64,000 nt of DNA from Eledone cirrhosa (lineage: Eukaryota): the NCBI GenBank assembly GCA_964016885.1, contig OZ024741.1:321036001-321100000 (forward strand), given 5' to 3'. Below, in pieces: positions 3,682 through 57,214 of this stretch; position 1 is the stretch's first letter; every line of letters begins with the position of its first letter. The position numbers and the translations under genes are program-made. The notes beneath the pieces were generated by a model. That model was not told where the DNA came from. It was given only the letters and a program-made list of their open reading frames with translations, and did no database searches.

Positions 3682-3742
3682 TATTTTATTATATATATTT
3701 CAAGGGTACCAACATTTTGGTACTCTCTCATCAGATAAAATA
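3682..3742 (-). ncRNA. Minimal type I hammerhead ribozyme
   Basis: Minus strand reads TATTTTAT-CTGATGA-GAGAGTACCAA aatg TTGGTACCCTT-GAAA-TATATA-TA-ATAAAATA; palindromic stem III; AUA triplet. Confidence 0.75.
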
Positions 3743-6915: not shown

Positions 6916-6983
<68 letters not shown>

Positions 6984-7187
6984 CGTTTCTGAATTTGTTT
7001 AGCAAGATACTTTATCTGAAATCGTGTGTTGAAACCGATATTGTTATACTTTGGGAGGGTCATGTTGCCAATAAGAAACACACGCACCAGTTGCTTTCAC
7101 TTCAATTTATTATAAATTTATAAATTTATAAATTTATAAATTTATGGTTGGTTGGTTGGTTTCACAACCAGATAGTTGTTTATATAT

Positions 7188-7232
7188 AGTCATAGTTCTT
7201 TCGTCACACACTCTGTGACCTCTTCAGTGACT
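7188..7232 (-). ncRNA. Minimal type I HHR in PLE 3' pLTR
   Basis: AGTCA-CTGAAGA-G-GTCACA gagtg TGTGAC-GAAA-GAAC-TA-TGACT; stem I AGTCA/TGACT; one extra nucleotide after the core. Confidence 0.7.
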
Positions 7233-7432
7233 GGGGATTCCTTTCTTTGTTTCTGTGCCTCTCCTTTGTTCTGTCCTACGCCATTTTGTTTCTGTGTGTG
7301 TGTTGTGTGCTCAGTCTGCGCATGCGCCACATCCGGGTGTCTGTGTGTGTTTATGTTCATTTATTTATTTGTTTATTTACATGTTACTGGTTGGTTGTTT
7401 GTTCTGTGTGTGTGTGTGTTTTCATTTTGTCC

Positions 7433-9287
7433 TTAATTGTAAGTTGTGATGTTGCTGTTCCACTCATATTTTCTATTTAATTTTGGTTGTAATTCTTTTA
7501 TGTTTATTGCCTCTGTAATTTGTCTAAACATTGCGTCTTTTCTGTGTGTAGATTCTATTTTTATTTCTATGTTCTCTAATTTACCCTTGTGTTCTATCTT
7601 AGCATGTTGGTAGAGTACATATGATTCTTTATTATCTTGAAGGTCTCGCCAGTGTTCATTTATCCGTTCCCCTACACTACGAGCTGTCTCACCTATGTAC
7701 ATTATATTTTTGTCTCTACATTGTCCTTCAGTACATCTTATGCTATACACTATATTTCTAGTTTTACAGTTAATATGGGGGCTTATTTTACAGGTTATAC
7801 ATTTCTTATCTATACATGAGGGTCTTTGAAAAGGGTATGTCTTGCTAATAAGTGTTTTTACGGAGGTACCTGGTCTTTCTACTATCTTAATATTGAGTTT
7901 ATGTTTATTTAGGGCCCTTCTAAATTTGTAAGCTAATTCACCTCTCGGGGTTGTATTGATGAACATTACACTCTGGTATTTATTGCTATCATACCATGAG
8001 TTTATTCTATTAGCCTTGTTCCTAGTTCTTTCTATTCTATTCCAAACTTTGCTCCTATACAAGGGGCAGGTCCCATTTATGTCATTATTTACCATTTTTT
8101 CCCATTTGGTTCTGGCTCCTCTATACACTCTGATTTTATCTCTCTGATTGTAGCCAGAGAACTGCATACGGTGGATGAAGTGTTGTATGTGTCTCTCTAG
8201 TTCTTCGGGGTTGCACATGCGGGACACATTTCTCATCACCCGTACCAAATCCGCAATCAGTATGTTGATTTTGGTATGGTCCGAAATGGCCGAGTTTCGG
8301 TGGATCAGATGTTTGGAAGTCATGGGTTTGGCATAATGGGAATGGAGGATTTGTTTTTTGTTGTTAATGGTATCTAACCAGAGCTCTGTGTCTAGTACAG
8401 GTAATCGATGGTTGGGGTGTTTACTTGGGTAGTCTATAGTAACTCTAATGCTCTGGTGGATGGAGTTTGCTATTTGCTGGATGCTTTCCATTGTGTTTTT
8501 CTCTAGTTCCTGACTGTTCTCTAGTGGGGGTGTCTTAACTACGATGTTTATATCATCTACATAGCGGGAGTACATTATCAGGGTTAAGGGGTCTTCTAAT
8601 TGTTCTTTAAGTTTAAGTTTAAGTCTACTGTCCCACCATACCATGAATAAGTTAGCTATGTCGCCTGCAATGCTAACACCAATGGCTGCTCCTTCCTCTT
8701 GGGCATATGTTTTTCCATTAAATTTGAACATATGTTCCTTAAGGGTTAGTTTTATGCTGGCCCCTACCGCATGTGCAATCATTTTCTTCAGTTCATCGTG
8801 GTTTTCGGGTGTCCGTATGGCTCTGGTCCACCCGTTCCATCTATCTGTGTGGGTTTTCTTGGCCATTGAGGTAATGGTAGGTGGTCTGCCTCTTGCTGGT
8901 CTTGTAGGGCACAGGTTGCTAAGGTCATATGTGTCTAGGTAACTATTACTATAGGTGAGCTTAAGTAGGAGTCCCAGCTCACTGGTATCAATCCCACAGA
9001 ACTCAACCTTGCTCTCACTGATCATTTCTACGCATTTCTCCACAGCAAAATCCACGTCAATAGATGGATACAGGGACACAACATCCATACTGCCTATTAT
9101 GCAGTTTGTTAGGTCCCCAGATCGGTTACTCACGCCGATTCTGCTGAGGAGGTCCTCCGTGCTGTCACATACATCTGGGGACATTTCAATGATGGGGCGT
9201 ATGATAAGGGAGAGGAAGTAGGACAGTCTGTAGTTACTAGCAATGTTAGCTCCACAGACTGGCCGTGTTGGTGGTCCCGTGACAGGG
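7433..9287 (-). CDS. PLE reverse transcriptase + Cys-rich linker + GIY-YIG endonuclease (N-terminally truncated, otherwise open; possibly Naiad-like clade)
   Basis: Motifs PPTRPVCGA, SMDVVSLYPSI, QEEGAAIG, RYVDD, LPVLD, CxxxxCxxC, VYSIRC...YIGETARS..ER..EH, EAINI...LN. The first codons of the called ORF (9288-9325) come from the inverted repeat. Clade assignment is tentative. Confidence 0.92.
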
Positions 9288-9744
9288 TAAGATAGTAGAA
9301 AGACCAGGTACCTCCGTAAAAACACTTATTAGCAAGACATACCCTTTTCAAAGACCCTCATGTATAGATAAGAAATGTATAACCTGTAAAATAAGCCCCC
9401 ATATTAACTGTAAAACTAGAAATGTAGTGTATAGCATAAGATGTACTGAAGGACAATGTAGAGACAAAAATATAATGTACATAGGTGAGACAGCTCGTAG
9501 TGTAGGGGAACGGATAAATGAACACTGGCGAGACCTTCAAGATAATAAAGAATCATCTGTACTCTACCAACATGCTAAGATAGAACACAATGGTAAATTA
9601 GAGAACATAGAAATAAAAATAGAATCTACACACAGAAAAGACGCAATGTTTAGACAAATTACAGAGGCAATAAACATAAAAGAATTACAACCAAAATTAA
9701 ATAGAAAATATGAGTGGAACAGCAATATCACAACTTACAATTAA
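9288..9744 (+). pseudogene. Duplicated GIY-YIG C-terminal fragment inside the inverted pLTR
   Basis: Near-identical inverse copy of the ORF 3' end (YIGETARS...EWNSNITTYN). Confidence 0.9.
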
Positions 9745-9849
9745 GGACAAAATGAAAACACACACACACATAGAACAAACAACCAACCAGTAACATGTAA
9801 ATAAACAAATAAATAAATGAACATAAACACACACAGACACCCGGATGTG

Positions 9850-9859
9850 GCGCATGCGC
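9850..9859. promoter_or_regulatory. GCGCATGCGC palindrome (NRF1/EWG-type site) in pLTR, next to CCGGATGT (ETS-like)
   Basis: Exact palindrome here, at 7318-7327, and in the unrelated PLE at 57325-57334; function is inferred. Confidence 0.4.
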
Positions 9860-9946
9860 AGACTGAGCACACAACACACACACACAGAAACAAAATGGCG
9901 TAGGACAGAACAAAGGAGAGGCACAGAAACAAAGAAAGGAATCCCC

Positions 9947-9991
9947 AGTCACTGAAGAGGTCACAGAGTGTGTGACGAAAGAACTATGACT
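9947..9991 (+). ncRNA. Minimal type I HHR in the inverted pLTR
   Basis: Identical to the 7188-7232 motif: CTGAAGA 9952-9958, GAAA 9977-9980. Confidence 0.7.
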
Positions 9992-10133
9992 ATATATAAA
10001 CAACTATCTGGTTGTGGAACCAACCAACCAACCAGAAATTTATAAATTTATAAATTTATAAATATATAATAAATTGAAGTGAAAGCAACTGGTGCGTGGG
10101 TTTCTTATTGGCAACATGACCCTCCCAAAGTAT

Positions 10134-10250
<117 letters not shown>

Positions 10251-13237: not shown

Positions 13238-13968
13238 GGGGGTGTATATGTAGGAAGGCTTGTTTGGGAATGCTTGCGTACGCGCTTGTGTGTGTGTAAT
13301 TATTATTTATTATTAAATAATCCATTCTGAGTTCGAATCCCACCGAGGTTAACTTTGCCTTTCATCCTTACGGGGTCGGTAAAATAAAGTACCAGTAATG
13401 CACTGGGTAATTGCTGGCCTTGTGCCAATAGTAGAAACAATTATTAAATGATCTAAAAAAATCTGTCAACTTTCTACCTTAACGTCATTAGATGTACATT
13501 GATATAATGAGTTATTGTGTGGTTATTCTACTTTCATATTTTCCTGTTTTTTATTTGAATTATTTTTTTATCTTTTCAATTGGGTCTTCTTTTTCTATAA
13601 AAACTACACCGCATCCATGATGGCACTTGATACCTTTTTAGGATTGACTCTTCTACTTCACCGCAATCGTTATCAAATCATACTGTCTAGTTAAAGATGT
13701 TTTTTACTAGAGGCTTTGATGGATTAGCTGTCAACAGTATGATAAACAATTAAGTTAAAAATGTACATCTACATATGCATACTGAAATACTAGTGTGTAT
13801 ATGAATACACACACGTATACATATGTAGGTGTACCAAGTCTTTCACTGGTCGCTTTACAGTGAGCGGCCCAGCTATTCTGTATGTAAACACACAGACAAA
13901 CCGGTTTTTAGAGTCATACTGGTTTCGGGGGAACACCTTCCCTCTATTCTCCAGAAAGCCAGACAAGG

Positions 13969-14013
13969 AATATTGAACTAGTTTCGTTGTTGTTACAACT
14001 CATCAGCAATATT
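13969..14013 (-). ncRNA. Type I hammerhead ribozyme
   Basis: Inverse copy of 14504-14548. Confidence 0.88.
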
Positions 14014-14410
14014 GACCTATCTACCGGCCTTTCTGGAGAATTGTAAAAGCACATATCGTTATATGCTTTTTCTATGAAAATTAGTAGTGGGCAGACTAAT
14101 TTGCATAGAGTGTGAGTACGCACCGGTTCAGCGGAGACGATAAAAACAAATAACGAAACGAAATTAAATTTCGCTTCGTTTGTAACTCACTTTTGTATGA
14201 CTGACGCTTAGACTTGGTACACCTACATATGTATACGTGTGTGTATTCATATACACACTAGTATTTCAGTATGCATATGTAGATGTACATTTTTAACTTA
14301 ATTGTTTAAGCGTCAGTCATACAAAAGTGAGTTACAAACGAAGCGAAATTTAATTTCGTTTCGTTATTTGTTTTTATCGTCTCCGCTGAACCGGTGCGTA
14401 CTCACACTCT

Positions 14411-14457
14411 ATGCAAATTAGTCTGCCCACTACTAATTTTCATAGAAAAAGCATATA
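14411..14457 (+). promoter_or_regulatory. Octamer ATGCAAAT plus conserved TAATxTxCATA..AAAGxATATA block (snRNA-type promoter candidate)
   Basis: Octamer at 14411-14418; downstream 24-mer shares 18/24 positions with the 427-bp family (minus strand, ~38161-38207). Confidence 0.5.
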
Positions 14458-14503
14458 ACGATATGTGCTTTTACAATTCTCCAGAAAGGCCGGTAGATAG
14501 GTA

Positions 14504-14548
14504 AATATTGCTGATGAGTTGTAACAACAACGAAACTAGTTCAATATT
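14504..14548 (+). ncRNA. Type I hammerhead ribozyme
   Basis: AATATTG-CTGATGA-GTTGT aaca ACAAC-GAAA-CTAG-TT-CAATATT; palindromic stem III ACTAGT; GUU triplet; stem I extended by ATTCTCCAGAAAG/CTTTCTGGAGAAT. Confidence 0.9.
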
Positions 14549-14906
14549 CCTTGTCTGGCTTTCTGGAGAATAGAGGGAAGGTGTTCCCCCGAAACCAGTA
14601 TGACTCTAAAAACCGGTTTGTCTGTGTGTTTACATACAGAATAGCTGGGCCGCTCACTGTAAAGCGACCAGTGAAAGACTTGGTACACCTACATATGTAT
14701 ACGTGTGTGTATTCATATACACACTAGTATTTCAGTATGCATATGTAGATGTACATTTTTAACTTAATTGTTTAAGCGTCAGTCATACAAAAGTGAGTTA
14801 CAAACGAAGCGAAATTTAATTTCGTTTCGTTATTTGTTTTTAGTATGATAAACGTTTTGATGAAAGAACCACCGAAAGTGAGTAAATAGCGGAAGTCCTA
14901 TATGTT

Positions 14907-37778: not shown

Positions 37779-37881
<103 letters not shown>

Positions 37882-38082
37882 AGTATGTATACGTATTTAC
37901 ATATATGTATACAGACGTACAGTAGTATGTATATATATACATACATGCACACATATATATGGACGTATGGATTTACCGAACATTTATTATAATGCTCGGT
38001 GTGTTTGTAAACAAACATCCCGAATTAAGCCCTACAGTGTTTAGCAGCCATCGTTGCCCTTTTGTTCAACACAGACAAAGGA

Positions 38083-38125
38083 ACGATGTACTAGTTTCAA
38101 GCTTATTAGCTATCGTCAGCACCGT
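38083..38125 (-). ncRNA. Type I hammerhead ribozyme, unit 1
   Basis: ACGGTG-CTGACGA-T-AGCT aata AGCT-T-GAAA-CTAG-TA-CATCGT; palindromic ACTAGT stem III; GUA triplet; U10.1-U11.1. Confidence 0.85.
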
Positions 38126-38507
38126 ATACCTTCCTGCCAGATGATTGAACGTCTGAAAGTATATACTTTCCTTATGCATATTAACGGCTGAGCAGCCTAA
38201 TTTGCATATCGAGTGAGTTAATCGGCCGGACGCACCGAAAACGATAAACGGAAAAAATGAAACGAAATTTCATTTCTCACTCTTAGTACGGCTGTTACTT
38301 AAATATAAGTATATATACGTACATACATATATGTATACAGACGTACGGTAGTATGTATATATGTATACATGCACACATATATATATGTACGTATGGATTT
38401 ACCGAACATTTATTATAATGCTCGGTGTGTTTGTAAACAAACATCCCGAATTAACCCTACAGTGTTTAGCAGCCATCGTTGCCCTTTTGTTCAACACAGA
38501 CAAAGGA

Positions 38508-38550
38508 ACGATGTACTAGTTTCAAGCTTATTAGCTATCGTCAGCACCGT
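38508..38550 (-). ncRNA. Type I hammerhead ribozyme, unit 2
   Basis: Identical to unit 1. Confidence 0.85.
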
Positions 38551-38935
38551 ATACCTTCCTGCCAGATGATTGAACGTCTAAAAGTATATACTTTCCTTAT
38601 GCATATTAACGGCTGAGCAGCCTAATTTCCATATCGAGTGAGTTAATCGGCCGGGCGCACCGAAAACGATAAACGGAAAAAATGAAACGAAATTTCATTT
38701 CTCACTCTTAGTACGGCTGTTACTTAAATATAAGTATGTATACGTACATACATATATGTATACAGACGTACAGTAGTATGTATATATATGCATACATGCA
38801 CACATATATATATGTACGTATGGATTTACCGAACATTTATTATAATGCTCGGTCTGTTTGTAAACAAACATCCCGAATTAAGCCGTACAGTGTTTAGCAA
38901 CCATCGTTGCCCTTTTGTTCAACACTGACAAAGGA

Positions 38936-38978
38936 ACGATGTACTAGTTTCAAGCTTATTAGCTATCGTCAGCACCGT
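38936..38978 (-). ncRNA. Type I hammerhead ribozyme, unit 3
   Basis: Identical to unit 1. Confidence 0.85.
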
Positions 38979-39186
38979 ATACCTTCCTGCCAGATGATTG
39001 AACGTCTGAAAGTATATACTTTCCTTATGCATATTAACGGCTGAGCAGCCTAATTTGCATATCGTGTAAGTTAATCGGCCGGGCGCACCGAAAACGATAA
39101 ACGGAAAAAATGAAACGAAATTTCATTTCTCACTCTTAGTACGGCTGTTACTTAAATATAAGTATGAATACGTACATACATATATG

Positions 39187-39243
<57 letters not shown>

Positions 39244-41955: not shown

Positions 41956-44900
41956 CTACAGGATGGTATACAGAGAAGGCCCATTTACACGAGCCATTCT
42001 CGCCACTATCACCCACCTTTCATAAAACTGCCTGTGGCCAAGCACCTCTCTCTCCATTCTTATCCTTCTTCCGAAGTGATATCGGAAGAAGTAGACCAGA
42101 CTATGGCCAGAGAGGAAGTTGCCTGACCTCAGACCTTTCAATCGTGTCCACCAAACAACCTCTTTCAACATGGCTATTACGCACAGAAAAACCGCCTTTG
42201 CTTCCTTTGTGAAGAGGGGAGGCGGTTTGATTGTCATCACGGACACGGCGGTCAATTGAATCGGCGCCACCCGCGACAGCAGTTGTTCGGCGTAGCCCCA
42301 CAGATCAGCCACGCCCGGACATTGCACCAATGCGTGCGCAACGGTTTCTTCGTGACGCACGCATCTAGGGCAAATCTTTTTTGAGGAATCCCTGCCCGGG
42401 CGCCCGTGTCTGTAGAGCCTCTCTCGAACGGGTAGAGCCCCCCGGTAGCACTGCCAGGCCAGTGACTTCTGGAAGTTGTCCATTGGTCCTGGGCCGAAAG
42501 TCCTACCGAACAGGCTGGCCAGTTCGTCTTCTTCCATGTCCAGCGACTCTCCAATGGTGTCATCGCCCCCTGCTAGCCACCAGCCCTCTATAGAATGATG
42601 AGGTGGATTCTCCACCGATGGCCTGGCCCGCTTGCCAGAGAGCCCTGAGCGCCTGAGAACACTCAGTGTGCCAGTCTCCCAGTTTTCCGGATCTTTGCTT
42701 GACCCGAGACTGTAGCTCGGTGAGCGAGACGAGTCTCGGAAAGGCTCGTTTCACGAACGGAGCCCACACCGGTTGACCAGTGAGGAATACCTGTAGGTGC
42801 CGTAGCCTTAATGCGTGCCTACGCATCATCAACCACGGCATCCCCAGCCCTCCTTTCGAAGGTTGTTGGCAGCAGATGGATCTTCTCACCATAGGAGGAC
42901 GCTTCTTCCAAAGAAATTGGAAGAGCATGCGTTCCATGGTGGTGAGTGTTTCCTTAGGGCAAGGCACGACAGTCAGGCGGTAGTAAGTGACGGACGCTAT
43001 GTAAATGTTCGCTACCTCCGCCCGGCCTTTTAGGGACAGCTTACACTTGGCCCATTTCTGGGTTAGTGCAAACACCTTGTTCGTAACCTCGTTCCAGTTC
43101 TTTTCCACCTGGAGGTCCGGTCCAAACCAGACCCCAAGCAACTTTACCGGGCCCTCCGTCCAGTGTCCGACGACACCGTCAGGAGGCATCGGTCTGCCTC
43201 TCCACGTTCCGAGTTGCAGCCCGATGGATTTTTCCCGGTTCAGTTTCGCTCCTGACAACCTTTCGTACTCCTCCAGTAAGGTACCGATCGCCTCGATCTC
43301 CGAGTCGGTTGATACCATTACTGTTACGTCATCGGCGTAGGCCGACACCGCTTTGCTCAATCCTGGTTCCAGGGGGATACCCTGCAACAACTCCAACTTC
43401 CTCAGTAAAGGCTCGAGAGTCAATACGTACAGAAGGGAGGAGAGAGGGCACCCCTGGAATGGATCGAATGGATCGTGTGATTTCGAACGGCTTCGAAAGG
43501 TAGCCGTTCACCTTGATCCTAGAACAGATGTGGTTGCTATGTAGGGCAGTGATCCAGCCTCTGAAAACAGGACCGAACCCAGCCGCCGCTAGCACCGCAT
43601 CCAGGTAACCATGGTCGACCCTATCGAAGGCCTTAGACTGATCCAAGTTGATCAGGGCCCCACCGAAGCCGGGTTTGTTGCCAACCCTCTCTATGATGTA
43701 TCGCATGAGGTGGAGGTTATCGTGAATGGACCTGGATGGGATAGCACATGTCTGCGCATCTCCCACCAGGCCACCCACGACAAGCGCCAACCTCTTTGCT
43801 AACACCTTGGCCAAAATCTTTAACTCTGTGTTTAGCAGGGTTATGGGCCGAAAATTATTTATACTATCCCCCTTGTTCTCGTCCTTCCTCACCAGCGTGA
43901 CTACGCCCTTGGCTACAGAACAAGGAATTCTCCCGTTCTGCTGCCAATTGCAGTAGACCGCTTCGAGGAGTTCGGAGAAGAAGACCGGCATTGCTAAATA
44001 AAGTTCGTAAGGTATACCATCGAGACCTGGAGATTTGCGTCTGCTGCATTGGCTCAGCGCATCTCCGATCTCATCAGCCGAGATTGGTCCCTCGCAGGAC
44101 TCTGCCTCTTCACTCGAGAGACGCGGCAGGCCGTCGAGGTATGGACCGAAATCCACGCTCCCGCCCGGACCCTCGCCTCCCCCGAACAATCGGGCAAAGT
44201 GCCTTTGAAAGGCCTCGCACATCTGCTTAGGCTCCCGGATCACCCGTCCATCTTCGTCTTGCAACGACCGGATGGTGGATCGATTTCCACTCTTAGCTTC
44301 TGTCACGCGGGCCCATCCAACGGCTTTGGCCCCCTCATTACCTAGAGCACGTATTTTACTTCGAATGACGCAGCCTTCGTGCTTTGCATCGAAAAACTGG
44401 TTCAAGGCCGTCCTCGATGCCAGCACTCTGGCCACCTCTTCGCTCTTGATTGCCTCTTCTAATTTACCTGTTAATTCTTTCTCGTTTCTATTCCTATCGG
44501 CAGCTAACATCTTGCTATAACTTATTGATTCTGTTCTAATCTCTCTTTTGAGAGATGCCCACCATCGGTTGTTGACGATTGCACCCGTCAACCTCTCCTT
44601 AACTAATCTGCTAATCCGGTTTCTGTAAGTCTCTTTTGCCGGTAAAGACAAATTAAGTTTCCAGTAACCGGGACCCTGTCTATGTGTTTTCTCGAGATTG
44701 ACCACGCAGGTCACTAATTTGTGATCCGTGTAGCCAACCGTGCGCATTTCTGGACAGCTTAATATGTCCCTATCCTTACTTCTAACTAAGAATCTATCTA
44801 AGTACGATCTAGATTGACCACTGTGGTTTCTCCAAGTCCAGGTAGGCACAGTTGGAAAATCTAGTCGATATCTATCGACCAAGTTAAAACGGTCGAGTAA

Positions 44901-45401
44901 CCCCTTGAGGCTGTTACACCCCCCTCTATTAGGACATGCTCCTGCATAGTCCCAACGTGCATCCAGGATGTCATTCCAATCCCCCGCTAGAAGCAGGGAA
45001 CGCGACGTTCCCAGAAAAGTCTCTAAACGCTGGAAGAAGTCGGGCCGTTCAGCTCCGAAAGGGGAGTAGACGGCGACCAGTCTCAAGGCCGCACTTTCAC
45101 TACTGCCAACGTCTAGCACCAACAAACGACCCTCCGGGTCCGAGTGCACAACCTGTATGGCAAGACCCAGGTGTTTTTGCAGCAGTACGACAATCCCACC
45201 CCCACCTCCAGGTTGACAGAGAGATGCATGCACCTCAAAGTCATCGAAAGTGGGGGCCAGCTGCCGCACGACGCTGATTCGAGTCTCACAGATAACCATT
45301 ACATTTATACTACATGACCTGAGGTCATTTAGAAGCTTTGCTTGCTTCCAAGTTGAGCCCAGGCCACGTGCATTCAAACATCCTACTCTTAACACATCCA
45401 T
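41956..45401 (-). pseudogene. ORF2: apurinic endonuclease, reverse transcriptase, C-terminal CCHC (zf-RVT), two frameshifts
   Basis: LNARGL, GDWN, SYLDRF, TDH; FRPITLLN, DQSKAFDRVDH, YADD; CPRC..ETVAHALVQC across ORFs 43329-45401, 42560-43423 and 41956-42615. Confidence 0.92.
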
Positions 45402-45434
45402 GTGGGCGGCAGAGCCAAAGGAGAGTGTAGAGAC

Positions 45435-46274
45435 CTACCTTTCCGCTTCCCGGGGTTCGGGTTGCACGACTTCCATGGGGTCGGGGGTGTTGGGTGAAGG
45501 GGTGTCTTGTGGTGGTGTGGGGTCGTCAGTGTGTGGTGGGGTTGGGGTGTTTGGAGTTGTGTTGGGGAGGGGAAGGGGAGGGGGAAAGCTTTTTAGTAGG
45601 ACGCGGTTTATGGGTTTGACAGAGGGTGGTCCTACGTCCTCCTTAAAATCCTTTTTTAGTTTTTGGTAGAGGTTCATTGGGATCTTTATTAGTTTTAAAT
45701 GTGGGTAGTTTTCTGACGAAACAAAGTTTACACCTTCGGTTTGTACCGAAGGATTATTGTATATGAGCTCATTTAATTTATTATTGTTTCTGTTGATGTA
45801 AGTATAGTGTAATGTCTTTTTTTCCGATGGTGTGAGTGTTTCGAAGAGGGGAGGGGCAGGTTTGGTTTTGTTTGTTGCTGGAGGGGTGTTTTCTGTTTTG
45901 TTGGATTGTGTTGAGATTTGGGTGGGGGTTGTTTGTCCTTGTGTGTTTTGCACATGTTTTCTTTTTTTCCTTTTAATCTGTCTGAAGGACTCTGTTTCTT
46001 CCTCCGAATTCGTTGGGTTATCTTCAGTGTTGGAGGGAAGAGGTATGTTTGCTGGTAATGTTTCCGTGTTGGTTTTCTTTGTGGGGGAGATGGATGTCAC
46101 TATGTTAGACTGTGTTGTGTGTTGTGTCTGCGGTGGTTGTGTTGTTTTATTGAGTGAGAGGTTGGGTGGGCCTGTATTTTGTTTTGGGGTAATGTGTTGT
46201 GACTGTTTGTGTTGTGGTGGTGTTGTGGTTTTACTGAGGGACGGGTTGGGTGGGACTGAGTTTTGTTGTTTGTT

Positions 46275-46275
<1 letters not shown>
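45435..46275 (-). pseudogene. LINE ORF1 C-terminal low-complexity (P/T/Q-rich) region
   Basis: Open frame ending ...PMEVVQPEPREAER just upstream of ORF2; homologous ending in copy E. Confidence 0.7.
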
Positions 46276-46343
<68 letters not shown>

Positions 46344-46385
46344 TGTCGGTATGAAGGGATTTAGGTAGGGAGGTAAGTAGATATA

Positions 46386-48223
46386 TTTCTTTATTTGCCA
46401 CAAGGGTGAACAAGAAAAGGGGACAATACAAAGACACATGCCGGGGATTTTACATACAGTCGTGTAAAAATATTGAAACAAACAATTATAACAATCGAAA
46501 TCCCCAACAGGGGGGAGGCGCCACGAATGGATTGTTTTATACTCCGTCGATAGAACAACCCTCAATTTCAGGGGCGTGTTGTGCAAGTGCTCCTTTCTTC
46601 CTTTGACTCTCTTCTTTAACCTACAGGCTTAAAAACAGAAAAGGCCCAATCACTCGGGCCATTTTCGCTTCATTCACCCACCTTTCAGTAAATTTACTGG
46701 GGTGCAGTGCCCCTCTCTCCACTCTGATTCTCCTTCTAAAGTGATACTTAAAGAAGGGAATCGATTGTTGTCCGGAGAGAAAGGCATCTGTCCTCAGTCC
46801 TCTCAATCTCGTCCACCATATAACCTCTTTCACAATAGCCACTGTACAGAGAAAAACCGCCTCTCTTTCGTTTTTGAAAGAGGCTGGTGGTTTGATCCTG
46901 GCAGTCAACTGGATTTGTGCCATACGCGACAGAAGTTGTTCTGCATAGTTCCACAGGTCGCTTACGCCCGGGCAGTGTACAATTGCGTGCAAAACGGTTT
47001 CAATGTCCTGCTCGCATCTTGGGCACGTCCTCTTGGAAGGATCCCTGCCGAGGCGTCCGTGCCTGTAGATCTTATCTCGACCGAGTAGAGCTCCTCGGTA
47101 GAACTGGGGGGCCAGGGACCTCGGGAAGTTGTCCATAGGTTCCGGGCGGAGAGTCCTACCGAACAGACTGGTGAGCTCGTCGTCTTCGACCCCTAGAGTC
47201 TCCCCGAGCACGTCGTCGCACTTGTAAAGTACTAACCCACTATAGAATGTCGAACTGGAGTCTCCACTGATTGCTGTTCCCGCTTGGCAGAGGACTGTGA
47301 GCGCCTTGGCGCATTCAATGTGCCAGGCGCCCATCTTCTTCGGTCTTCGCTTCAACCAGGACTGCAGCTCCGTCAGCGAGACAAGTTGTGGGAAGGCCTG
47401 TCTCAGAAACGGTGCCCACACCGGTTGGTCGGTGAGCAATACCTGGAGATGCCGTAGCCTCAGCGCATGTTTGCGCATCATTAGCCACGGCATTCCCAGC
47501 CCTCCGTTGGAAGGGTGTTGACAGCAGACGGATCTCCTCACCAGTGGAGCCTGCTTCTTCCACAGGAACTGGAAGAACATGCGTTCCATCTTGGTGAGGT
47601 TTCACGGGGACAAGGCACGATAGTCAAGATGTAGTAGATGACGGATGCTAAGAAAGTGTTCGCCACCTCCGCTCGACCTTTCAAAGACAGTTTGCACTCT
47701 GCCCTCTTCTGGGTGAGCGCAAATACCTTGGCCATGACCTCGTTCCAGTTTCACCAGTCCTTCCGTCCAGCGTCCGACGACGCTGTCGGATGGCATCGAT
47801 TTGCCTCTCCACGTTCCGAGTTGCAAACCGACAGAATTGTCAGGGTTCAGTTTTGCTCCTGTGAACCTTTCGTATTCCTGTAGTAGGTTGCCGATTACCT
47901 TGATTTCCGAGGTTTTCGACACCATTACCGTCACGTTGTCGGCAGAAGCCGACGCCGCTTTTCGCAGTCCCGGTTCTAAAGGGATGCCCTGCAAAAGCTC
48001 CAACTTCCGCAGTAGTAGCTCTAGAGTCAATATGTACATAATGGAGGAGAGAGGGAATCCCTGACGAATGGATCACGTGATTGCGAACGGCTCCGATAGG
48101 TAGCCGTTCACCTTAACCCTCGAGCAGATGCTAGTGTGTATCGCCATGATCCAGCCTCAGAAAACGGGACCGAACCGTCCGCCTTGAGAACAGCTTCCAA
48201 GTATCGATGGTCGACCTTATCGA
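46386..48223 (-). mobile_element. L1/Tx1-like LINE copy B, 5'-truncated in RT
   Basis: Homologous ORF2 C-terminal fragments; same 3' UTR motif; (GATA)n on both sides. Confidence 0.9.
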
Positions 48224-48271
<48 letters not shown>

Positions 48272-48272
48272 A

Positions 48273-49647
48273 TTTCTTTATTAGCCACAAGGGCACAAAA
48301 GAAGGGGACAAATACAAATGGGGAGTTTACATACAGGTATATGAAAATAAAACTATTAATAAAACAACAAATAACAATTGAAATCCGCAATATGGGGGGA
48401 GGTGTTACACAGGGGTTGTACACACCCCGAAAAAATGTACAACCCTCATCTCCAGGAGCACCAAGAGTGAGTACTCCCTTCCTCTCTTCCTATTTTTTCT
48501 CAACCTACAGGCTTATATAGAGAGAAGGCCCAACCACTCGGGCCATCTTTGCCACATTCACCCACCTTTTATAAAATTTGCTTGGATACAGTACCTCTCT
48601 CTCCCTCCTGATTCTTCTTTCAAAATGATATTTGAAAAAACGAATCAGTTGTTCACCGGAGAGAAAGGTGTCTGACCTCAGCCCTTTTAACCTCGTCCAC
48701 CATATAACCTCTTTCACCATAGCCATAACACATAGGAAAACCGCCTCTCCCTCGTTTTTGAAGGAGGGTGGCGGTTTGATCATGACAATGGACTCGGTGG
48801 TCAACTGGATTGGTCCCACCCGCGACAATAGTCGTTCTACATAGCCCCACAGGTCGGTAACGCCCGGGCAGTGTACAAATGCGTGCGCGACGGTTTCCTC
48901 ATCGCGCACGCATCTCGGACAGATATTTTTCGAAGGGTCCCTACCCGGGCACCCGTGTCTATAGAGCTTGTCTCGAACTGGTAGAGCTCCTCGGTAGCAC
49001 TGCCAGGCCAGGGACTTTTGGAAGTTGTCCATTGGTCCCGGGCGGAAGGTCCTACTGAACAGACTGGCCAGTTCGTCTTCCTCTACGCCTAGAGTTTCTC
49101 CGAGCGTGTCGTCGCATTTGCTGCGGACCAACCCTCTATAGAATGTCGAAGTGGAGTCTCCACTGATCGCCGGGTCCGTTTGCCAGAGGACTGTGAGCGC
49201 TTGAGCACATTCGATATGCTAGTCGCCCATTTTCCTCGGTCTTTGCTTGACCCAAGTCTGCAGCTCGGTCAGCGAGACGAGTCGTGGGAAGGCTCGCCTC
49301 ACGAACGGGGCCCACACCGGTTGTCTGGTGAGGAATACGTGGAGGTGCCGCAGCCTGAGCGCGTGTTTCCGCATCGTCAGCCACGGCAACCCCAGCCCTC
49401 CGTTTGAAGGGTGTTGGCAGAAGATGGATCTTCTCACCAAAGGAGCCCGTTTCTTCCAAAGGAATTGGAAGAGCGCGCGCTCCATTTTGGTGAGCGTTTT
49501 GGCTGGACAAGGCACAACGGTCAAGCGGTAGTAGATGACGGACGCTATAAAAGTGTTCGTCACCTCCGCTCGACCTTTCAAGGATAGTTTGCACTCGGCC
49601 CACTTCTGGGTGAGCGCAAACACCTTGGCCGTCACCTCGTTTCAGTT
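48273..49647 (-). mobile_element. L1/Tx1-like LINE copy C
   Basis: LSLKGRAEV...GGLG...CPRC homology; (GATA)n on both sides. Confidence 0.9.
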
Positions 49648-49679
49648 CGATATGCCAGTCAGATAGATAGGTCGGTAGG

Positions 49680-49737
<58 letters not shown>

Positions 49738-49739
49738 TA

Positions 49740-49827
49740 TTTCTTTATTAGCCACAGGGGCACAAAAGAAGGGGACAAATACAAAGGGGGAAGTTTACAT
49801 ACAATAAAAACGTGTAAAATGTTATCA
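49740..49827 (-). mobile_element. L1/Tx1-like LINE copy D (3' UTR only)
   Basis: ttctttattagccacaggggcacaaaagaaggggacaaatacaaagggg between two (GATA)n runs. Confidence 0.85.
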
Positions 49828-49879
49828 CAGATAGATAGATAGATAGATAGAAAGATAGATAGATAGATAGATAGATAAG

Positions 49880-52800
49880 TTTCTATTTATTTGCCACTAG
49901 GGCACAACAGAAGGGGACAAATACAAGGGGGGAGTTTACATAAAGGAACGAGTAAAAAACAAATAACAAATATAAAATAAACAATACAGTCCTCAATAGG
50001 GAGGAGGCGTTTTGGGGGTTACACACACCCCCGAAAAAGTGTGCAACCCTTTTCCTTAGGAGCACAGAGAGGGGGTGCTCATTTGCACTTCCATCTTTCC
50101 ACCTACAGGCTGATAAAGAGAGAAGGCCCATTCACACGGGCCATTCTCGCTACTTTCACCCACCTTTCATAAAACTTACTGGGGTAGAGCACCTCTCTCT
50201 CCATTCTGATCCTTCTCTTAAAATGGTATTTAAAGAAAAGGACCAGTTGTTGGCCGGAGAGAAAGGTGTCCGACCTCAGCCCCTTTCAAACGTGTCCACC
50301 ATACCACCTCTTTCACCATTGCTATTACACAGAGGAAAACCGCCTCTCGTTCATTTTTGAAGGGGGGAGGCGGATTGATCGTTACAATGGATTCAGTGGT
50401 CAACCGGATTGGTCCCACCCGTGACAGCAGTCGTTCGACATAGCCCCACAGATTGGCAACGCCCGAGCAGTGTACCAATGCGTGCGCAACGGTTACCTCG
50501 TCGCGCACGCATCTGGGACAGATTTTTTTAGAGGGCTCCCTACACGGGCGCCCGTGTATGTAGAGATTTTCTCGAACGGGCAGCGCCCCTCTGTAGCACT
50601 GCCAGGCCAGGGACTTCTGGAAGTTGTCCATAGGTCCCGGGCCAAATGTCCTGCGAATAAGCTGGCCAGTTCGTCTACCTCCATGCCTGGGGCTTGGCCG
50701 AGGGCGTCGTCGCACCTACTAACCACCAGCCCTCTACAGAATGACGAGGTGGAGTCTCCGCCGATAGCCGGGTCCGCCTGCCAGAGAGCCGTGACCGCCT
50801 GGGCACACTCGGTGTACCAGGCGCCCAGTTTTCTCGGTTTTTGCTTGACCCAGGACTGCAGCTCGGTGAGCGAGACGAGTCTCGGAAAGGCTCGCCTCAC
50901 AAACGGGGCCCACACCGGTTGACGATAAGGAATACCTGGAGGTGCCGTAGCCTTAATGCGTGTTTACGCATCAACAGCCACTGCATTCCCAGCCCTCCTT
51001 TCGAAGGGTGTTGACAGCAGATGGATCTCCTCACCAAAGGAGCCCGCTTCTTCCAAAGGAATTGGAAGAGTGCGCGCTCCATTTTGATGAGCGTTTCCCT
51101 TGGGCAAGGCACGACGGTCAGGCGGTAATAGATGACGGACGCTATATAAGCGTTCGCCACCTCCGCCCGACCTTTCAGGGATATTTTGCACTCAGCCCAC
51201 TTCCGCGTCAGCGCAAACACCTTGTTCGATACCTCACCTCAGTTCTTCTCCACCTGGAGGTCTGGCCCAAACCAGACCCCGAGCAACTTCACCGGGCCCT
51301 CCGTCCAACGTCCGACGACGCCGTTGGAGACCCCTCCACCCGCCCCTCCACTCGCCAAGTTGCAAACCGACAGACTTGTCCCGGTTCAGCTTAGCCTGTA
51401 AACGTTTCGTATTCCTCCAGTAAGGTGCCGATCACTCCGATTTCCGAGGCGGTTGACACCATTACTGTCACGTCATCGGCGTAGGCCGACACCGCTTTCC
51501 GCAATCCCGGTTACAAAGGGGTGCCCCGTGAAAAACACCAAACTACCGCAGCAGTGGCTCTAGGGCCAATACATACAGAAGGGAGGAGAGAGGGCATCCC
51601 TGTCGGATGGACCGCGTGATTTCGAACGGCTCCGAGAGGTAGCCGTTCACCTTGACCCTAGAGCAGATGCGGCTAGTGTGCATGGCAGTTATCCAGCCCC
51701 TGAAAACGGGTCCGAAATCTGCCGCCACTAGCACCGCATCCAGGTAACGATGGTCGACCCTATCGAATGCCTTAGATTGATCCAAGTTGATCAGGATCCC
51801 ACCAAAGCCGGGTTCGTTCCCAACCCTCTCTATGATGTATCGCATGAGATGGAGGTTGTCGTGAATGGACCTGGACGGATGGCGCATGTCTGCGCATCTC
51901 CCACCAAGTTTCTCACCACAAGCGCCAACCTCTTTGCTAACACCTTGGCCAAAATCTTTAACTCTGCATTTAGCAGTGTTATGGGCCTAAAATTAATTAT
52001 TTCATCCTCCTTGTTCTCGTCCTTCCTCACTAGCGAGACTACGCCCTTGGTCACAGAACAGGGAATTCTCCCGTTCTGTTGCCAGTTGCAGTAGACCGGT
52101 TCGAGGAGATCGAAGAACATGTCCGGCATACTTAAATACAGTTCGTATGGAAGACCATCGAGGCCCGGAGATTTGCGTCTGCGGCATTGGCTCAGCACGT
52201 CCCCTATCTCAGCAGCTGAGCATCGTCCGAAAGACGCGGCAGGCCGTCGAGGAATGGACCGAGGTCCACATCCCCATCCGGCCCCTCGCCCCTTCCGAAC
52301 AATCGGTCAAAGTGCCTTTGAAAGGCCTCGCACATCTGCTTGGGTTCAAGGATCACCCGTCCATCCTGGTCTCGCAAAGACCGTATAGTGGATCTAGTCC
52401 CACTTTTGGCTTCTGTCACGCGGGCCCAGCTAACAGCTTTGGTCCCCTCGTTTCCCAGAGCACGTATTTTGCTTCGGACAACGCAGCCTTAATGTTTCGT
52501 GTCGAAGAACTGGCCCAAGGCCGTTCTCGACGCTAGCACTCTGGCTACGTCGCCGCTTCTAATTGCCTCTTCTACACTATCTACCAACTCCCTTTCCTTC
52601 CTATTTCTATCTGAGGCTAACTCCTTACTAACTCCTATTGAAGCTACTCTAATCTCTCTTTTGAGAGAGCCCCACCACTTGCTGTTGACGATGGCGCCCG
52701 TCAACCGCTCCTTAACTAATTTACTAATTTCTTGTAAGCTTTACTTGCCGGTAAGGACAAGTTGAGCTTCCAGTAACCGGATCCCTGTCTATGCGTTCTA

Positions 52801-53684
52801 TCAAGGTTGACCATGGAGGTCACTAACTTGTGGTCTGAATAGCCAACCATGAGCATTTTTGGACAACTTAAAAAGTCCCTATCATTATTTCTAACGAAGA
52901 ACCTATCTAGGTACGATCTAGATTGACCGCTGTGGTTTCTCTAAGTCCAGATTGGCACAGTCGGAAAATCTAGTCGATATCTATCGGCCAGGTTGAATCG
53001 GCCGATTAACCCCTTGAGGCTGTTACAACCCCCTCTATCAGGACATGCCCCTACATAGTCCCAACGTACATCTAGGAGACCATTCCAGTCCCCCACTAAA
53101 AGCAAGGAGCGGGACGTCCCTAGAAAGGTCTCCTGACGATGGAAGAAGTCCGGCCGCGTTGACCCAAAAGGGCCGTAGATGGCGACCAGCCTAAAAGCTC
53201 CGCCTTCACCACTGCCAATGTCCAGAACCACTAGTCGACCCTCCGGATCCAAGTGTACCGTCTATGTAGCGAGACCCAGATGTTTTTGCAGCAGAACGAC
53301 AACCCCACCCCCACCTCCGGGCTGACAGAGAGATGCGTGCATCTCAAAGTCATCAAAGGTGGGGGCCAGCTGTCGCACGCTGCTGATCCGGGCCTCGCAA
53401 ATAACCATCACATTTATACATCGTGACCTGAGGTCATTTAGAAGCATTGCTTGCTTCCAAGGTGAGCCCTGGCCAGGCGCATTTAGACAACCTATTCTCA
53501 ACACAGCCATGTTGGTGGTAAAGAGAAAAGGCACTTACCTTTCTGCGTCCCGGGGACCGGGCCGCACAATTTCCATGGGGGTGGGGGATGGGTTGTTGGG
53601 TGGGGTGGTGGTTTGTGGAAGTGTAGGGGCATCAGTGTGTGGTGGGGTTGGGATGTTTGGCGTCGTGTGGGTGTCTGGGGGGGG
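49880..53684 (-). mobile_element. L1/Tx1-like LINE copy E (full but multiply frameshifted ORF2, ORF1 tip)
   Basis: ORF2 ATG at 53510 (MAVLRIGCLNA); APE, RT (QGCPLS, YADD region) and zinc-knuckle fragments. Confidence 0.9.
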
Positions 53685-54103
53685 AGAAAGAAAGAATGAA
53701 ATAAGATACAGAAATAATAGAGATCAGATATACAAAAACACCACTTTTAAAACATTTAGTACATTCGACCTACGATCGGTAGAGGGTCGGAGACCATGCT
53801 TTGACGCATAGAGTTACGGCCCTTGCCGAGGTTAACTTTGCCTTTCATCCTTACGGGGTCGATAAAATAAAGTACCAGTAATGTACTGGTAATTGCTGGC
53901 CTTGTGCCAAAAGTAGAAACAGTTATAGAAAAATATGTGTGTGTGTCTGTGTGTTCATGTGTGTATGTGTGTTCATGTGCGTATGTGTATGTATAGAAAA
54001 ATGTAATTAAGGGATTCACTTCCCATAAACAGGCAATTTATTTTCACCTCACTGTGAAAAGTAAACAAAATGTGCAGAAAAGTGTCTAGTTTTCTAAGAC
54101 TCA

Positions 54104-54248: not shown

Positions 54249-55285
54249 CAGGCTGCGTATGATATTTGTTCGCAAGATTACTGTCTAGGAAAAAATAACA
54301 CAGTACTTTTATTTGTTAAGATATATTTATCACACTTGGGTCAGTTTGTCTTCATGACTTGTTCTTTCGATCTCACTCGATAAACCCGCTATTGGCTTTG
54401 ATGACGGCCTCAAGGCGGCATCGGAACCGGCTACAGGCCTTCGTCACTGTCCCCCGACTTAGGCCCCTAAAGGTACTTGTGATCCTGGCCTTCAGATCGT
54501 CTTTCTTATTGCAGCTAGATCTGTTGGTGTCTCGTTCCACTGCGCCCCACACAAAGAAGTCGAGGGGGTTGCAGTCAGGCGAGCTGAGAGGCCAGATGTC
54601 ACGTGAAGTGTGGTTGACGAAATTCTCTGACAGCTAGGCTTGGGTCTTTCGGCTGGTATGGCAGGGCGCTGAGTCTTGCTGCCACACGTACGGCCTACCT
54701 GCAGCTACCTGGTCGATCCAGGGCTTTACTATCTCGCTCAGAACGCAGATGTAGCCATTGGTGTTCAGCTTGAGGCCCTCAGGGAAGAAGTGAGGTGGCA
54801 TGACGTCACCTTGACTGCTGACGACACCTAAGACCAATGTTGTTGCTGGAAACTTTGTCTGCCTGACTCTGGGCACGTCTTTGGATGAGACAGCGAGCCA
54901 CCTGTTGTTCTGGGAGTTGATCTTCTGGTCTTGGCAGAAGTTTTTCTCATCGGAGAAAAACAACAGCACGTCTGGCTCCAGTAGGTGTTTCAACTTGTTG
55001 CTTCGTCGTCGAATCCTGAATCTTCCAATTCCTTTCCACCATTCTCCTGCTGACGCTGAGAAAGTCTGAAATTTCCTTATTTGTCCTCCTGCGCGGATTC
55101 CAAGAAGAACTCCGTGTCTCTTCCACAAATTTGGAGGTTCAAAATTATTCATAATCAATTATTCTGAAGGTAAATAATGGAAATATAGTCACTGTTTTTA
55201 TGAAGACAAGAGTAACAACGGAAGTAAAAATCATTTGCATAAAATTAGCAGTTGAAAATTGCGAACAAATATCGTCCACACCCTG
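54249..55285 (-). mobile_element. Tc1/mariner DD37D (maT-like) transposon, internally deleted
   Basis: TIRs caggctgcgtatgatatttgttcgcaa / ttgcgaacaaatatcgtccacaccctg; TA flanks. Confidence 0.88.
54373..55152 (-). pseudogene. DD37D transposase pseudogene
   Basis: FSDEKNF...WQQDSAPCH..*LSENF..WPLSSPDCNPLDFFVW; 37 residues between the second and third D; in-frame TAG and N-terminal deletion. Confidence 0.88.
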
Positions 55286-56321: not shown

Positions 56322-56524
56322 ATATATATTTATATATATTTATATATATATGGTATCCCATAAAATGTATTGCTGTTGTTGCTAGTGGGAGAGTAGGTGA
56401 TAGGTTGCGAGAAGCCGCTGTTAGCTAATGCCGTGTTATAGTAGGGTCTCGCTCTGTCAAAGATAGCCTTATTCGAGGAGAGGTTTGAGATTCTAGTACT
56501 GATAATATTTACGAAGTTTCTAAA

Positions 56525-57214
56525 AACACCAATAAGAAAATAAAGCGTAGCAATAGACAAACTATCTGGTTCTCTCCTCTCTTCTCACTCAACGTTAAAA
56601 CCAATGTAGGCAAACAATTTCTAACCCTCTTAGATAGACACTTTCCCATAGGTAATAATTACCGCTCCATATTTAACCGACACAAAGTTAAACTGGGATA
56701 CTCTTGCGCTAAGAACATGAAGGCCCACATCACCAACAGCCCTAAGAGCAACACTCCACCAGGGTGCTCTTGTCGTAAGCCCGAAGTTTGTCCCCTTCAA
56801 CAGCAATGCAACATACCCGCTGTAGTTTATGAAGCTGTGGTCACTTCCGACCGACCAAATCAACCACAGGAGGTCAAATCCTATGTGGGTATGGCGGAGG
56901 GCCGATTTAAGGAACGCTTCCTGAACCACCAGTCGACCTTTAGGTACCCGGACAGTCGTTCATCCACGAAACTCGCAAGCCACGTATGGTCCCTCAAGGT
57001 CTCAAGTATAGACTACTCCATTCAATGGAAATCCATCACTAAGTCCAAACCATACGCAAGGGGCAATCCGTCGTGTGGACTATGTATTGATGAACGAATA
57101 AATATTCTAAAGAGATTACACAATAGTGATTGCCTAAACTCAAGGAATGAATTCTTCACACGTTGTCCACACGTCTGGAAACACCTCTTACATAACTACA
57201 AAGCTCCGGATTGA
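56525..57214 (+). CDS. PLE linker + GIY-YIG endonuclease (partial, open from 56525)
   Basis: TIWFSPLFSLNVKTNVGKQFL...CSCRKPEVCPLQQQC..VVYEAVV...SYVGMAEGRFKERFLNH...CGLCIDE..LNSRNE..CPH. Confidence 0.85.
   Translation, partial: NTNKKIKRSNRQTIWFSPLFSLNVKTNVGKQFLTLLDRHFPIGNNYRSIFNRHKVKLGYSCAKNMKAHITNSPKSNTPPGCSCRKPEVCPLQQQCNIPAVVYEAVVTSDRPNQPQEVKSYVGMAEGRFKERFLNHQSTFRYPDSRSSTKLASHVWSLKVSSIDYSIQWKSITKSKPYARGNPSCGLCIDERINILKRLHNSDCLNSRNEFFTRCPHVWKHLLHNYKAPD

Follow-up and report, generated by a model that had tools for sequence, protein, structure and literature searches.

The hammerhead repeat located at positions 13743-14842 of the DNA analyzed here, a stretch of the Eledone cirrhosa genome, is most probably a young insertion of a non-coding, non-LTR retrozyme-type element, in which two head-to-head arms lie within one target-site duplication and which a Penelope-type endonuclease/reverse transcriptase (RT) is likely to have put in place. 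The whole stretch, referred to as the window, comprises 64,000 nt of AT-rich, microsatellite-rich animal DNA (assembly GCA_964016885.1, OZ024741.1, positions 321,036,001-321,100,000, plus strand), and the coordinates given below are those of the window unless unit positions are specified. The repeat unit consists of 466 nt (14210-14675), with unit position 1 at 14210. The direct arm (14210-14842, plus strand) is 633 nt long, or 1.36 laps of the unit, and has its RNA 3′ end at unit position 166-167, a location that we call family site A. The inverted arm (13743-14210, minus strand) makes about one lap; its RNA 3′ end is found at unit position 94-99 (family site B) and its 5′ end at 98-99. Realignment confirmed the coordinates of both arms, the 466-nt unit, and the different phase and 1.36-lap length of the plus segment that had been proposed in a previous reading made from the sequence only. 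The arms meet at a head-to-head inner junction (14210-14213) with a microhomology of 1 nt if exact, or 3 of 4 nt if imperfect, between unit positions 98-95 and 1-4, and A14210 can be assigned to either arm. No open reading frame of 120 aa or more overlaps 13743-14842. The 466-nt unit has a low GC content and its predicted fold is unusually stable (z -10.6; 0/100 shuffles equally stable).

The copies of the unit within the insertion are nearly identical. The 167-nt overlap inside the plus arm is 100% identical (0/167 differences), and the minus arm, which follows the unit from position 98 through a full turn to 99, shows a single mismatch in 468 nt. This mismatch, at 14014, is the sole difference between the arms and maps to the bulge in stem I of the hammerhead in the inverted arm. 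The new change is probably the one in the inverted arm, because a relative with a 427-nt unit has the plus-arm base. All three segments carry the departures of this copy from the family majority, such as the G at 14343, where most reads and the contig depth have A.

Both arms together are framed by a target-site duplication that had been overlooked in the sequence-only reading. Its left copy is found at 13736-13747 and its right copy at 14842-14853 (both on the plus strand); it is 12 bp long at most, of which 6 bp are unambiguous. The first base of the right copy is common to unit position 167, and the last 5 nt of the left copy (13743-13747) also match unit positions 95-99 in reverse, a match that could have served as primer microhomology. 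Among 151,112 random pairs of non-simple 30-nt windows taken at this spacing, 57 shared a 12-mer by chance. Depending on the assignment of the shared bases, the inverted arm is 462-468 nt long by exact matches, and up to 471 nt with the imperfect 4-nt inner match. A length of 466 nt corresponds to one of the six corner readings tabulated (13748-14213) and is inside the exact range. Since the left 5 nt belong also to the duplication and A14210 fits either arm, one lap is allowed rather than proven. The previous claim that the inverted arm is exactly one lap that starts and ends at the same TA was therefore upheld to within a few bases, the same TA being one reading among several (462-468 nt).

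Five of 23 sequencing runs were used for comparison with the family: X1, X3, X21, and X22 with one full lap, and X1 and X23 with unit positions 1-203. The summed contig depth was not taken as copy number. The family is abundant and tandem, as the one-lap joint 14842>14377 was recovered from two samples, in which 720 and 530 raw reads contain it. In X1, 954 contigs match one full lap, and 570 contigs match unit positions 1-203, 36 of them fitting only in part. Three of the six loose ends listed for X1 occur just before (TA)n, at position 99 (at least 4 contigs), 168 (at least 12), and 169 (at least 1); the other three comprise a pair of variant ends and a junction, probably head-to-head, between 135 and about 389. 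Both recurrent family ends, 99 and 168-169, are the outer ends of the focal locus and are separated by about 68 nt. The evidence for fixed ends consists of at least 17 contigs from the single run X1, and the exact position of each end is uncertain by 2-3 nt owing to the adjacent (TA)n. The runs X1 and X23 together have 46 more loose-end rows than those listed. Unlike these X1 contigs, the focal locus lies in non-microsatellite DNA. Behind 14842, the full-lap comparison showed 16 contigs with a loose (TA)n consensus, and tandem run-ons may be mixed in among them. The 5′ boundaries vary: they are found at positions 1 and 98 in the focal locus, at 156 (88 reads), and probably at 135 joined to about 389 (one contig). 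The X1 signal at 14344 and the X21/X22 joint 14377-14598 probably both represent this head-to-head junction, in which some 11 additional letters separate the unit positions of about 135 and about 389.

Other candidate ends were discarded. The opposite-strand joint 14377-14598 was considered as a whole-lap junction at position 168 and rejected, as 14377 coincides with the edge of the compared stretch, and the 135/389 junction is the probable source of these reads. RAD raw reads were also rejected as a map of termini: their main loose ends (14419, 14766/14769, 14816-14818, 14300, and 14350-14352) fall on or beside AATT sites, and the cluster of starts at 14635 fits a restriction-site variant. 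The enzymes used for the RAD library were presumably MluCI and SphI. We read the main RAD loose ends, including the apparent joins to the end of the neighboring Penelope element, as library chimeras.

The agreement of both outer (RNA 3′) ends with recurrent family ends corresponds in part to the shared fixed termini that had been named as evidence against the sequence-only reading. The stretch between the two fixed 3′ ends (14775-14842, plus strand, 68 nt, unit positions 100-167) holds a 13-bp hairpin. By analogy, it is likely to be the counterpart of the Penelope "tail" as this concept appears in the available text of PMC8557442 and PMC11167929.

Near-perfect inverted repeats can be read artefacts. 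An assembly artefact, or a rearrangement of satellite DNA without any RNA step, could in principle have produced the two arms, and no reads spanning the junctions of this locus were seen (the depth is 0 at 14863-14900). The target-site duplication, the one difference between the arms, and the asymmetry of the hinge all speak against such an origin. Furthermore, family ends that agree with both outer ends were recovered from an independent run, and two samples contained raw reads (5 and 6, respectively) with opposite-strand joints of the family. We consider an origin of this kind very improbable.

The predicted ribozyme cuts are located after 14541 (plus strand) and after 13976 (minus strand), and, as had been noticed from the sequence, neither breakpoint is the hammerhead cleavage site. 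Both arms cross the cut site, which excludes a cleaved linear monomer as the template. The arm sequences support an RNA template that would be continuous across the predicted ribozyme site, either a circle or an uncleaved multimer. The coincidence of the outer ends with recurrent ends of the family argues for priming that occurred twice, once from each target strand and at a fixed site each time, and against a single run that switched templates. Such fixed starts can be reconciled with a circle, since Penelope RT initiates within the RNA. The proposal that reverse transcription took place around a circular or multimeric RNA with a template switch can thus be retained with respect to the template, which crosses the cut site, and to retrotransposition, as a duplication frames the insertion; it has to be amended in that the phases are not arbitrary and there are two fixed starts.

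In the pathway that we favor, a Penelope-type endonuclease/RT would nick both target strands and prime one cDNA from each of them. The bottom strand would have been primed at about unit position 167 and extended by 633 nt, and the top strand would have been primed at about 94-99 with the help of the 5-nt match and extended by one lap. The 3′ ends of the two cDNAs could then have been joined via 1-4 nt of microhomology, after which each would have templated the second strand of the other. In vitro, both target strands are cut and extended by a purified Penelope protein, which uses uncleaved RNA and initiates at a pair of internal positions in it, one on either side of the tail (PMC11167929, in the portion available). 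Inverted 5′-truncated copies, tails, and duplications of 8-10 bp are described as typical of Penelope in the portions available of PMC8557442 and PMC3846280, and retrozymes have been tied to Penelope pLTRs (10.64898/2026.07.22.740005, accessible part).

Two other pathways deserve consideration at this point. Self-priming and resolution by the endonuclease, ideas put forward in the accessible text of PMC3846280 and PMC8557442, could generate both arms from a single 633-nt cDNA that folded back, re-primed on itself at 95-98, copied 14307-14774 back, and was resolved at site B. The plus arm does contain the whole template required (the arms would be 13743-14213 and 14304-14774), the match at the hinge is 3 of 4 nt, and the arms are near identical. 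However, the hinge is not palindromic, with about 97 nt between the arms, and the left end coincides with a 3′ end of the family that other copies have next to (TA)n, a feature explained directly by two priming sites. Extension of both strands has also been observed in vitro (PMC11167929, in the portion available), and we regard fold-back as unlikely. In the second pathway, transcripts would begin or be cut at site B, and a unit-length linear RNA would yield one lap without a circle, with start and stop at one phase by construction. Nonetheless, no cluster of 5′ ends was found at 95-99 among the rows listed, where a single contig ends at 14304 and its loose letters are those of the unit itself, and the 633-nt arm requires a longer template, making this an improbable origin. 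Priming from both target strands remains our preferred explanation.

Under priming from both strands, a ligated monomer circle and an uncleaved multimer stand at about even odds as the template, and the one-lap length of the inverted arm alone cannot separate them. A mechanistic cause for this length, namely a stop at the arm's own primer, is conceivable and rather doubtful. In its concrete form, the RT extending the top strand would travel along a ligated 466-nt circle and stall after one lap at its own primer duplex at 95-99. If the imperfect match is counted, the inner end is at 95, and otherwise at 98-99; in either case it falls on the 5 nt with which the primer could pair. The interval 13748-14213 has precisely 466 nt, while in simulations a random stop was compatible with a whole lap in 1.46% of the cases per arm. 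In addition, the three segments share the same departures from the family majority with only 0/167 and 1/468 differences, and circles have been shown for other retrozymes (PMC7229834, in the portion available). Several observations weaken this model. The plus arm covers 1.36 laps, which shows that the enzyme is able to proceed beyond its own start; the locus was chosen for its oddity, and the probability of at least one such case among 50 arms is 52%; a young homogeneous array would equally give identical laps; and other 5′ boundaries are found elsewhere (1, 156, probably 135/389, and, in the 427-nt array described below, a point some 32 nt ahead of site B). A self-stop on a circle is therefore, in our opinion, not the probable course of events.

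We lean slightly toward a length due to chance, in which the start was fixed and the inner end was the product of random 5′ truncation or microhomology trimming, an interpretation compatible with the pathway preferred above. A frequency of 1.46% per arm must be seen in the context of an abundant family, the remaining 5′ boundaries are scattered, and the GTTT(A) at 95-99 is a short match that was available at both junctions. On the other hand, the agreement is within 0-4 nt, and the inner ends are too few for an estimate of their distribution. The one-lap arm is a single case and may be chance. We tentatively raise the possibility, which we hold to be a minority one, that the inverted arm is a DNA record of a Penelope RT that set out from a fixed site, completed one circuit of a 466-nt ribozyme RNA circle, and was halted by its own primer. 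If this were true, whole-lap arms should be enriched genome-wide, and they would be the first sequence evidence for circles, and not linear multimers, as the template of transposition. The two fixed starts together with the lengths of the arms permit a test by counting, in which circles would be indicated by a peak at whole laps, but not by an even distribution. An in vitro assay could likewise be directed at the fixed sites.

The hammerhead domain of the plus arm (14476-14571, plus strand; z -4.4) matches Rfam HH9 with 38.6 bits (E 6e-8), and the type I hammerhead of the inverted arm (13953-14024, minus strand, core starting at 14006) does so with 35.4 bits (E 6.7e-7). The alignment to the plus-arm domain covers the full length of the HH9 model. 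Both scores are below its gathering score of 52, and HH9 is a different family of the clan; the Rfam scan of the window at the gathering threshold produced no match. Matches to Rfam microRNAs, far below gathering, were rejected as hairpin noise. The core at 14511-14541 includes CUGANGA, GAAA, and NUH in the type I order with helix I open, helix I has 7 bp, and helix II has 5 bp. The hammerhead is followed outward by a distal stem of 13 bp (14476-14488/14559-14571), which is perfect in this copy as had been stated, with family reads varying at 14482, 14484, and 14567. Helix III consists of one pair closing a palindromic CUAG loop, or of two pairs with a 2-nt loop, and falls short of a stable helix III in the monomer; the computed energy of its palindromic self-duplex is -7.2 kcal/mol. 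The cleavage triplet is GUU, which is probably the family state, as 14541 is absent from the best 40 of about 100 read differences. Under the NUH rule, GUC and AUC are the best triplets and GUU is allowed but not best (PMC9217987, in the portion available). The hammerhead had been described as canonical, a designation that applies to its core and helices I and II, but not to its weak palindromic helix III or its GUU triplet.

Helices I and II are supported by two sets of paired changes. In helix II, the paired positions 14519 (T>A) and 14530 (A>T) are changed in 367/536 and 360/510 minus-mate X21 reads, numbers that were counted per site and not as linkage within reads. In helix I, three two-sided changes with respect to the 427-nt family were read from the alignment. 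The minimum-energy fold mispairs part of the core, and the active form is 1.5 kcal/mol costlier. A helix III of this weak palindromic type is also found in the axolotl HHR_Amex1, for which cleavage is poor in the monomer and efficient in the dimer (PMC7229834, in the portion available). By analogy, tandem transcripts, in which it could dimerize, would offer the predicted ribozyme its best working conditions, and the focal locus, with one hammerhead per strand, would not itself free a monomer. Self-cleavage cannot be assumed, since only one of nine predicted Xenopus elements cleaved in vitro according to the accessible part of 10.64898/2026.07.22.740005. A pattern scan of metagenomes resulted in 0 matches.

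The window includes other elements of related types. A 427-nt hammerhead array is located at 37877-39187 (minus strand) and comprises three units plus about 32 nt, with a GUA site and a U-U at the base of helix II. Its units are 94-95% alike among themselves and about 67% alike to the 466-nt unit, and its hammerheads had no Rfam match at E 0.001. Its 3′ end is found in (TA)n, just before TTAAG, at a site homologous to unit position ~96 (site B), and its 5′ boundary about 32 nt before site B. A Penelope-like element occupies about 6980-10139, with an open reading frame for RT and GIY-YIG (7433-9325, minus strand) about 6 kb from the focal repeat. The Pfam matches of this neighbor are under the cut-off (RVT_1, 20.7 of 29.6; GIY-YIG, 22.2 of 22.6), and a PDB sequence search with its open reading frame returned 0 matches. 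It has two head-to-head arms that are 95% alike (an inverted 3′ copy), hammerhead motifs at 7227 (minus strand) and 9952 (plus strand), a tail of about 60 nt in the left arm alone, and both ends in (TA)n. This two-armed layout resembles that of the focal repeat and matches the Penelope layout in the available text of PMC8557442 and PMC3846280. No match between the 466-nt unit and Penelope ends was found within the 64-kb window. The pattern scan detected further hammerhead-like motifs at 3734 (minus strand), 21617 (plus strand), and 58175 (plus strand), the first two of which are alike and have an 8-bp helix I. An open reading frame at 56489-57214 (plus strand) resembles the endonuclease end of Penelope and has no Pfam match. 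A GC-rich cluster at 41956-53811 seems to consist of broken LINE-like copies with endonuclease- and RT-like open reading frames, and 54634-55158 (minus strand) is a putative fragment of a mariner-like transposase.

Judged by its sequence, the focal repeat is a new non-LTR retrozyme with a Penelope-type insertion layout, for which expression as monomeric linear and circular RNA would be expected from its class. It has a short tandem unit, one type I hammerhead, many copies, no coding capacity, and a duplication of 6-12 bp. The metazoan non-LTR retrozymes of coral, mussel, and axolotl, as far as they are described in the accessible portions of PMC7229834 and 10.64898/2026.07.22.740005, have in common with it a tandem unit that is non-coding, AT-rich, and strongly folding and carries one type I hammerhead, a duplication longer than 4 bp, and the presence of Penelope elements in the same genome; the weak palindromic helix III is shared with the axolotl HHR_Amex1 (PMC7229834). 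Its 466 nt exceed the 170-400 nt given in PMC7229834 and are within the 51-972 bp of 10.64898/2026.07.22.740005. It differs from these retrozymes in its GUU site, and, lacking two hammerheads on the same strand, the locus is not "active" by the rule of 10.64898/2026.07.22.740005. Retrozyme circles have been proposed as templates for Penelope enzymes, and the circle model is drawn in Figure S9 of PMC7229834; in the portions available, that study and 10.64898/2026.07.22.740005 show the RNAs and the kinship, but do not show how insertion proceeds. An arrangement of two head-to-head arms that end at two fixed 3′ sites is absent from these portions of both accounts, and titles and abstract starts in the open-access literature yielded no papers on two-armed retrozyme insertions or whole-lap arms.

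An inverted 5′-truncated copy and two fixed 3′ ends that bound a tail are the features expected of mobilization by Penelope. The likeness to endonuclease-positive Penelope-like elements, as presented in the available text of PMC3846280, PMC8557442, and PMC11167929, extends to the partial tandem, the short duplication, AT-rich or microsatellite targets, and the hammerhead in the repeat. In contrast to those elements, the focal repeat has no open reading frame, its tail is about 68 nt long compared to the 30-40 nt published, and its hammerhead has full-size helices I and II instead of being minimal. No sequence match to a pLTR was found in the 64-kb window. In the 5′ inversions that LINE-1 generates by twin priming, the second target strand primes by microhomology and the inverted segment lies inside the duplication. 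The focal repeat shares this layout and differs from it in the lack of a poly(A) end, in its fixed second start, and in its arms, which overlap by the whole unit.
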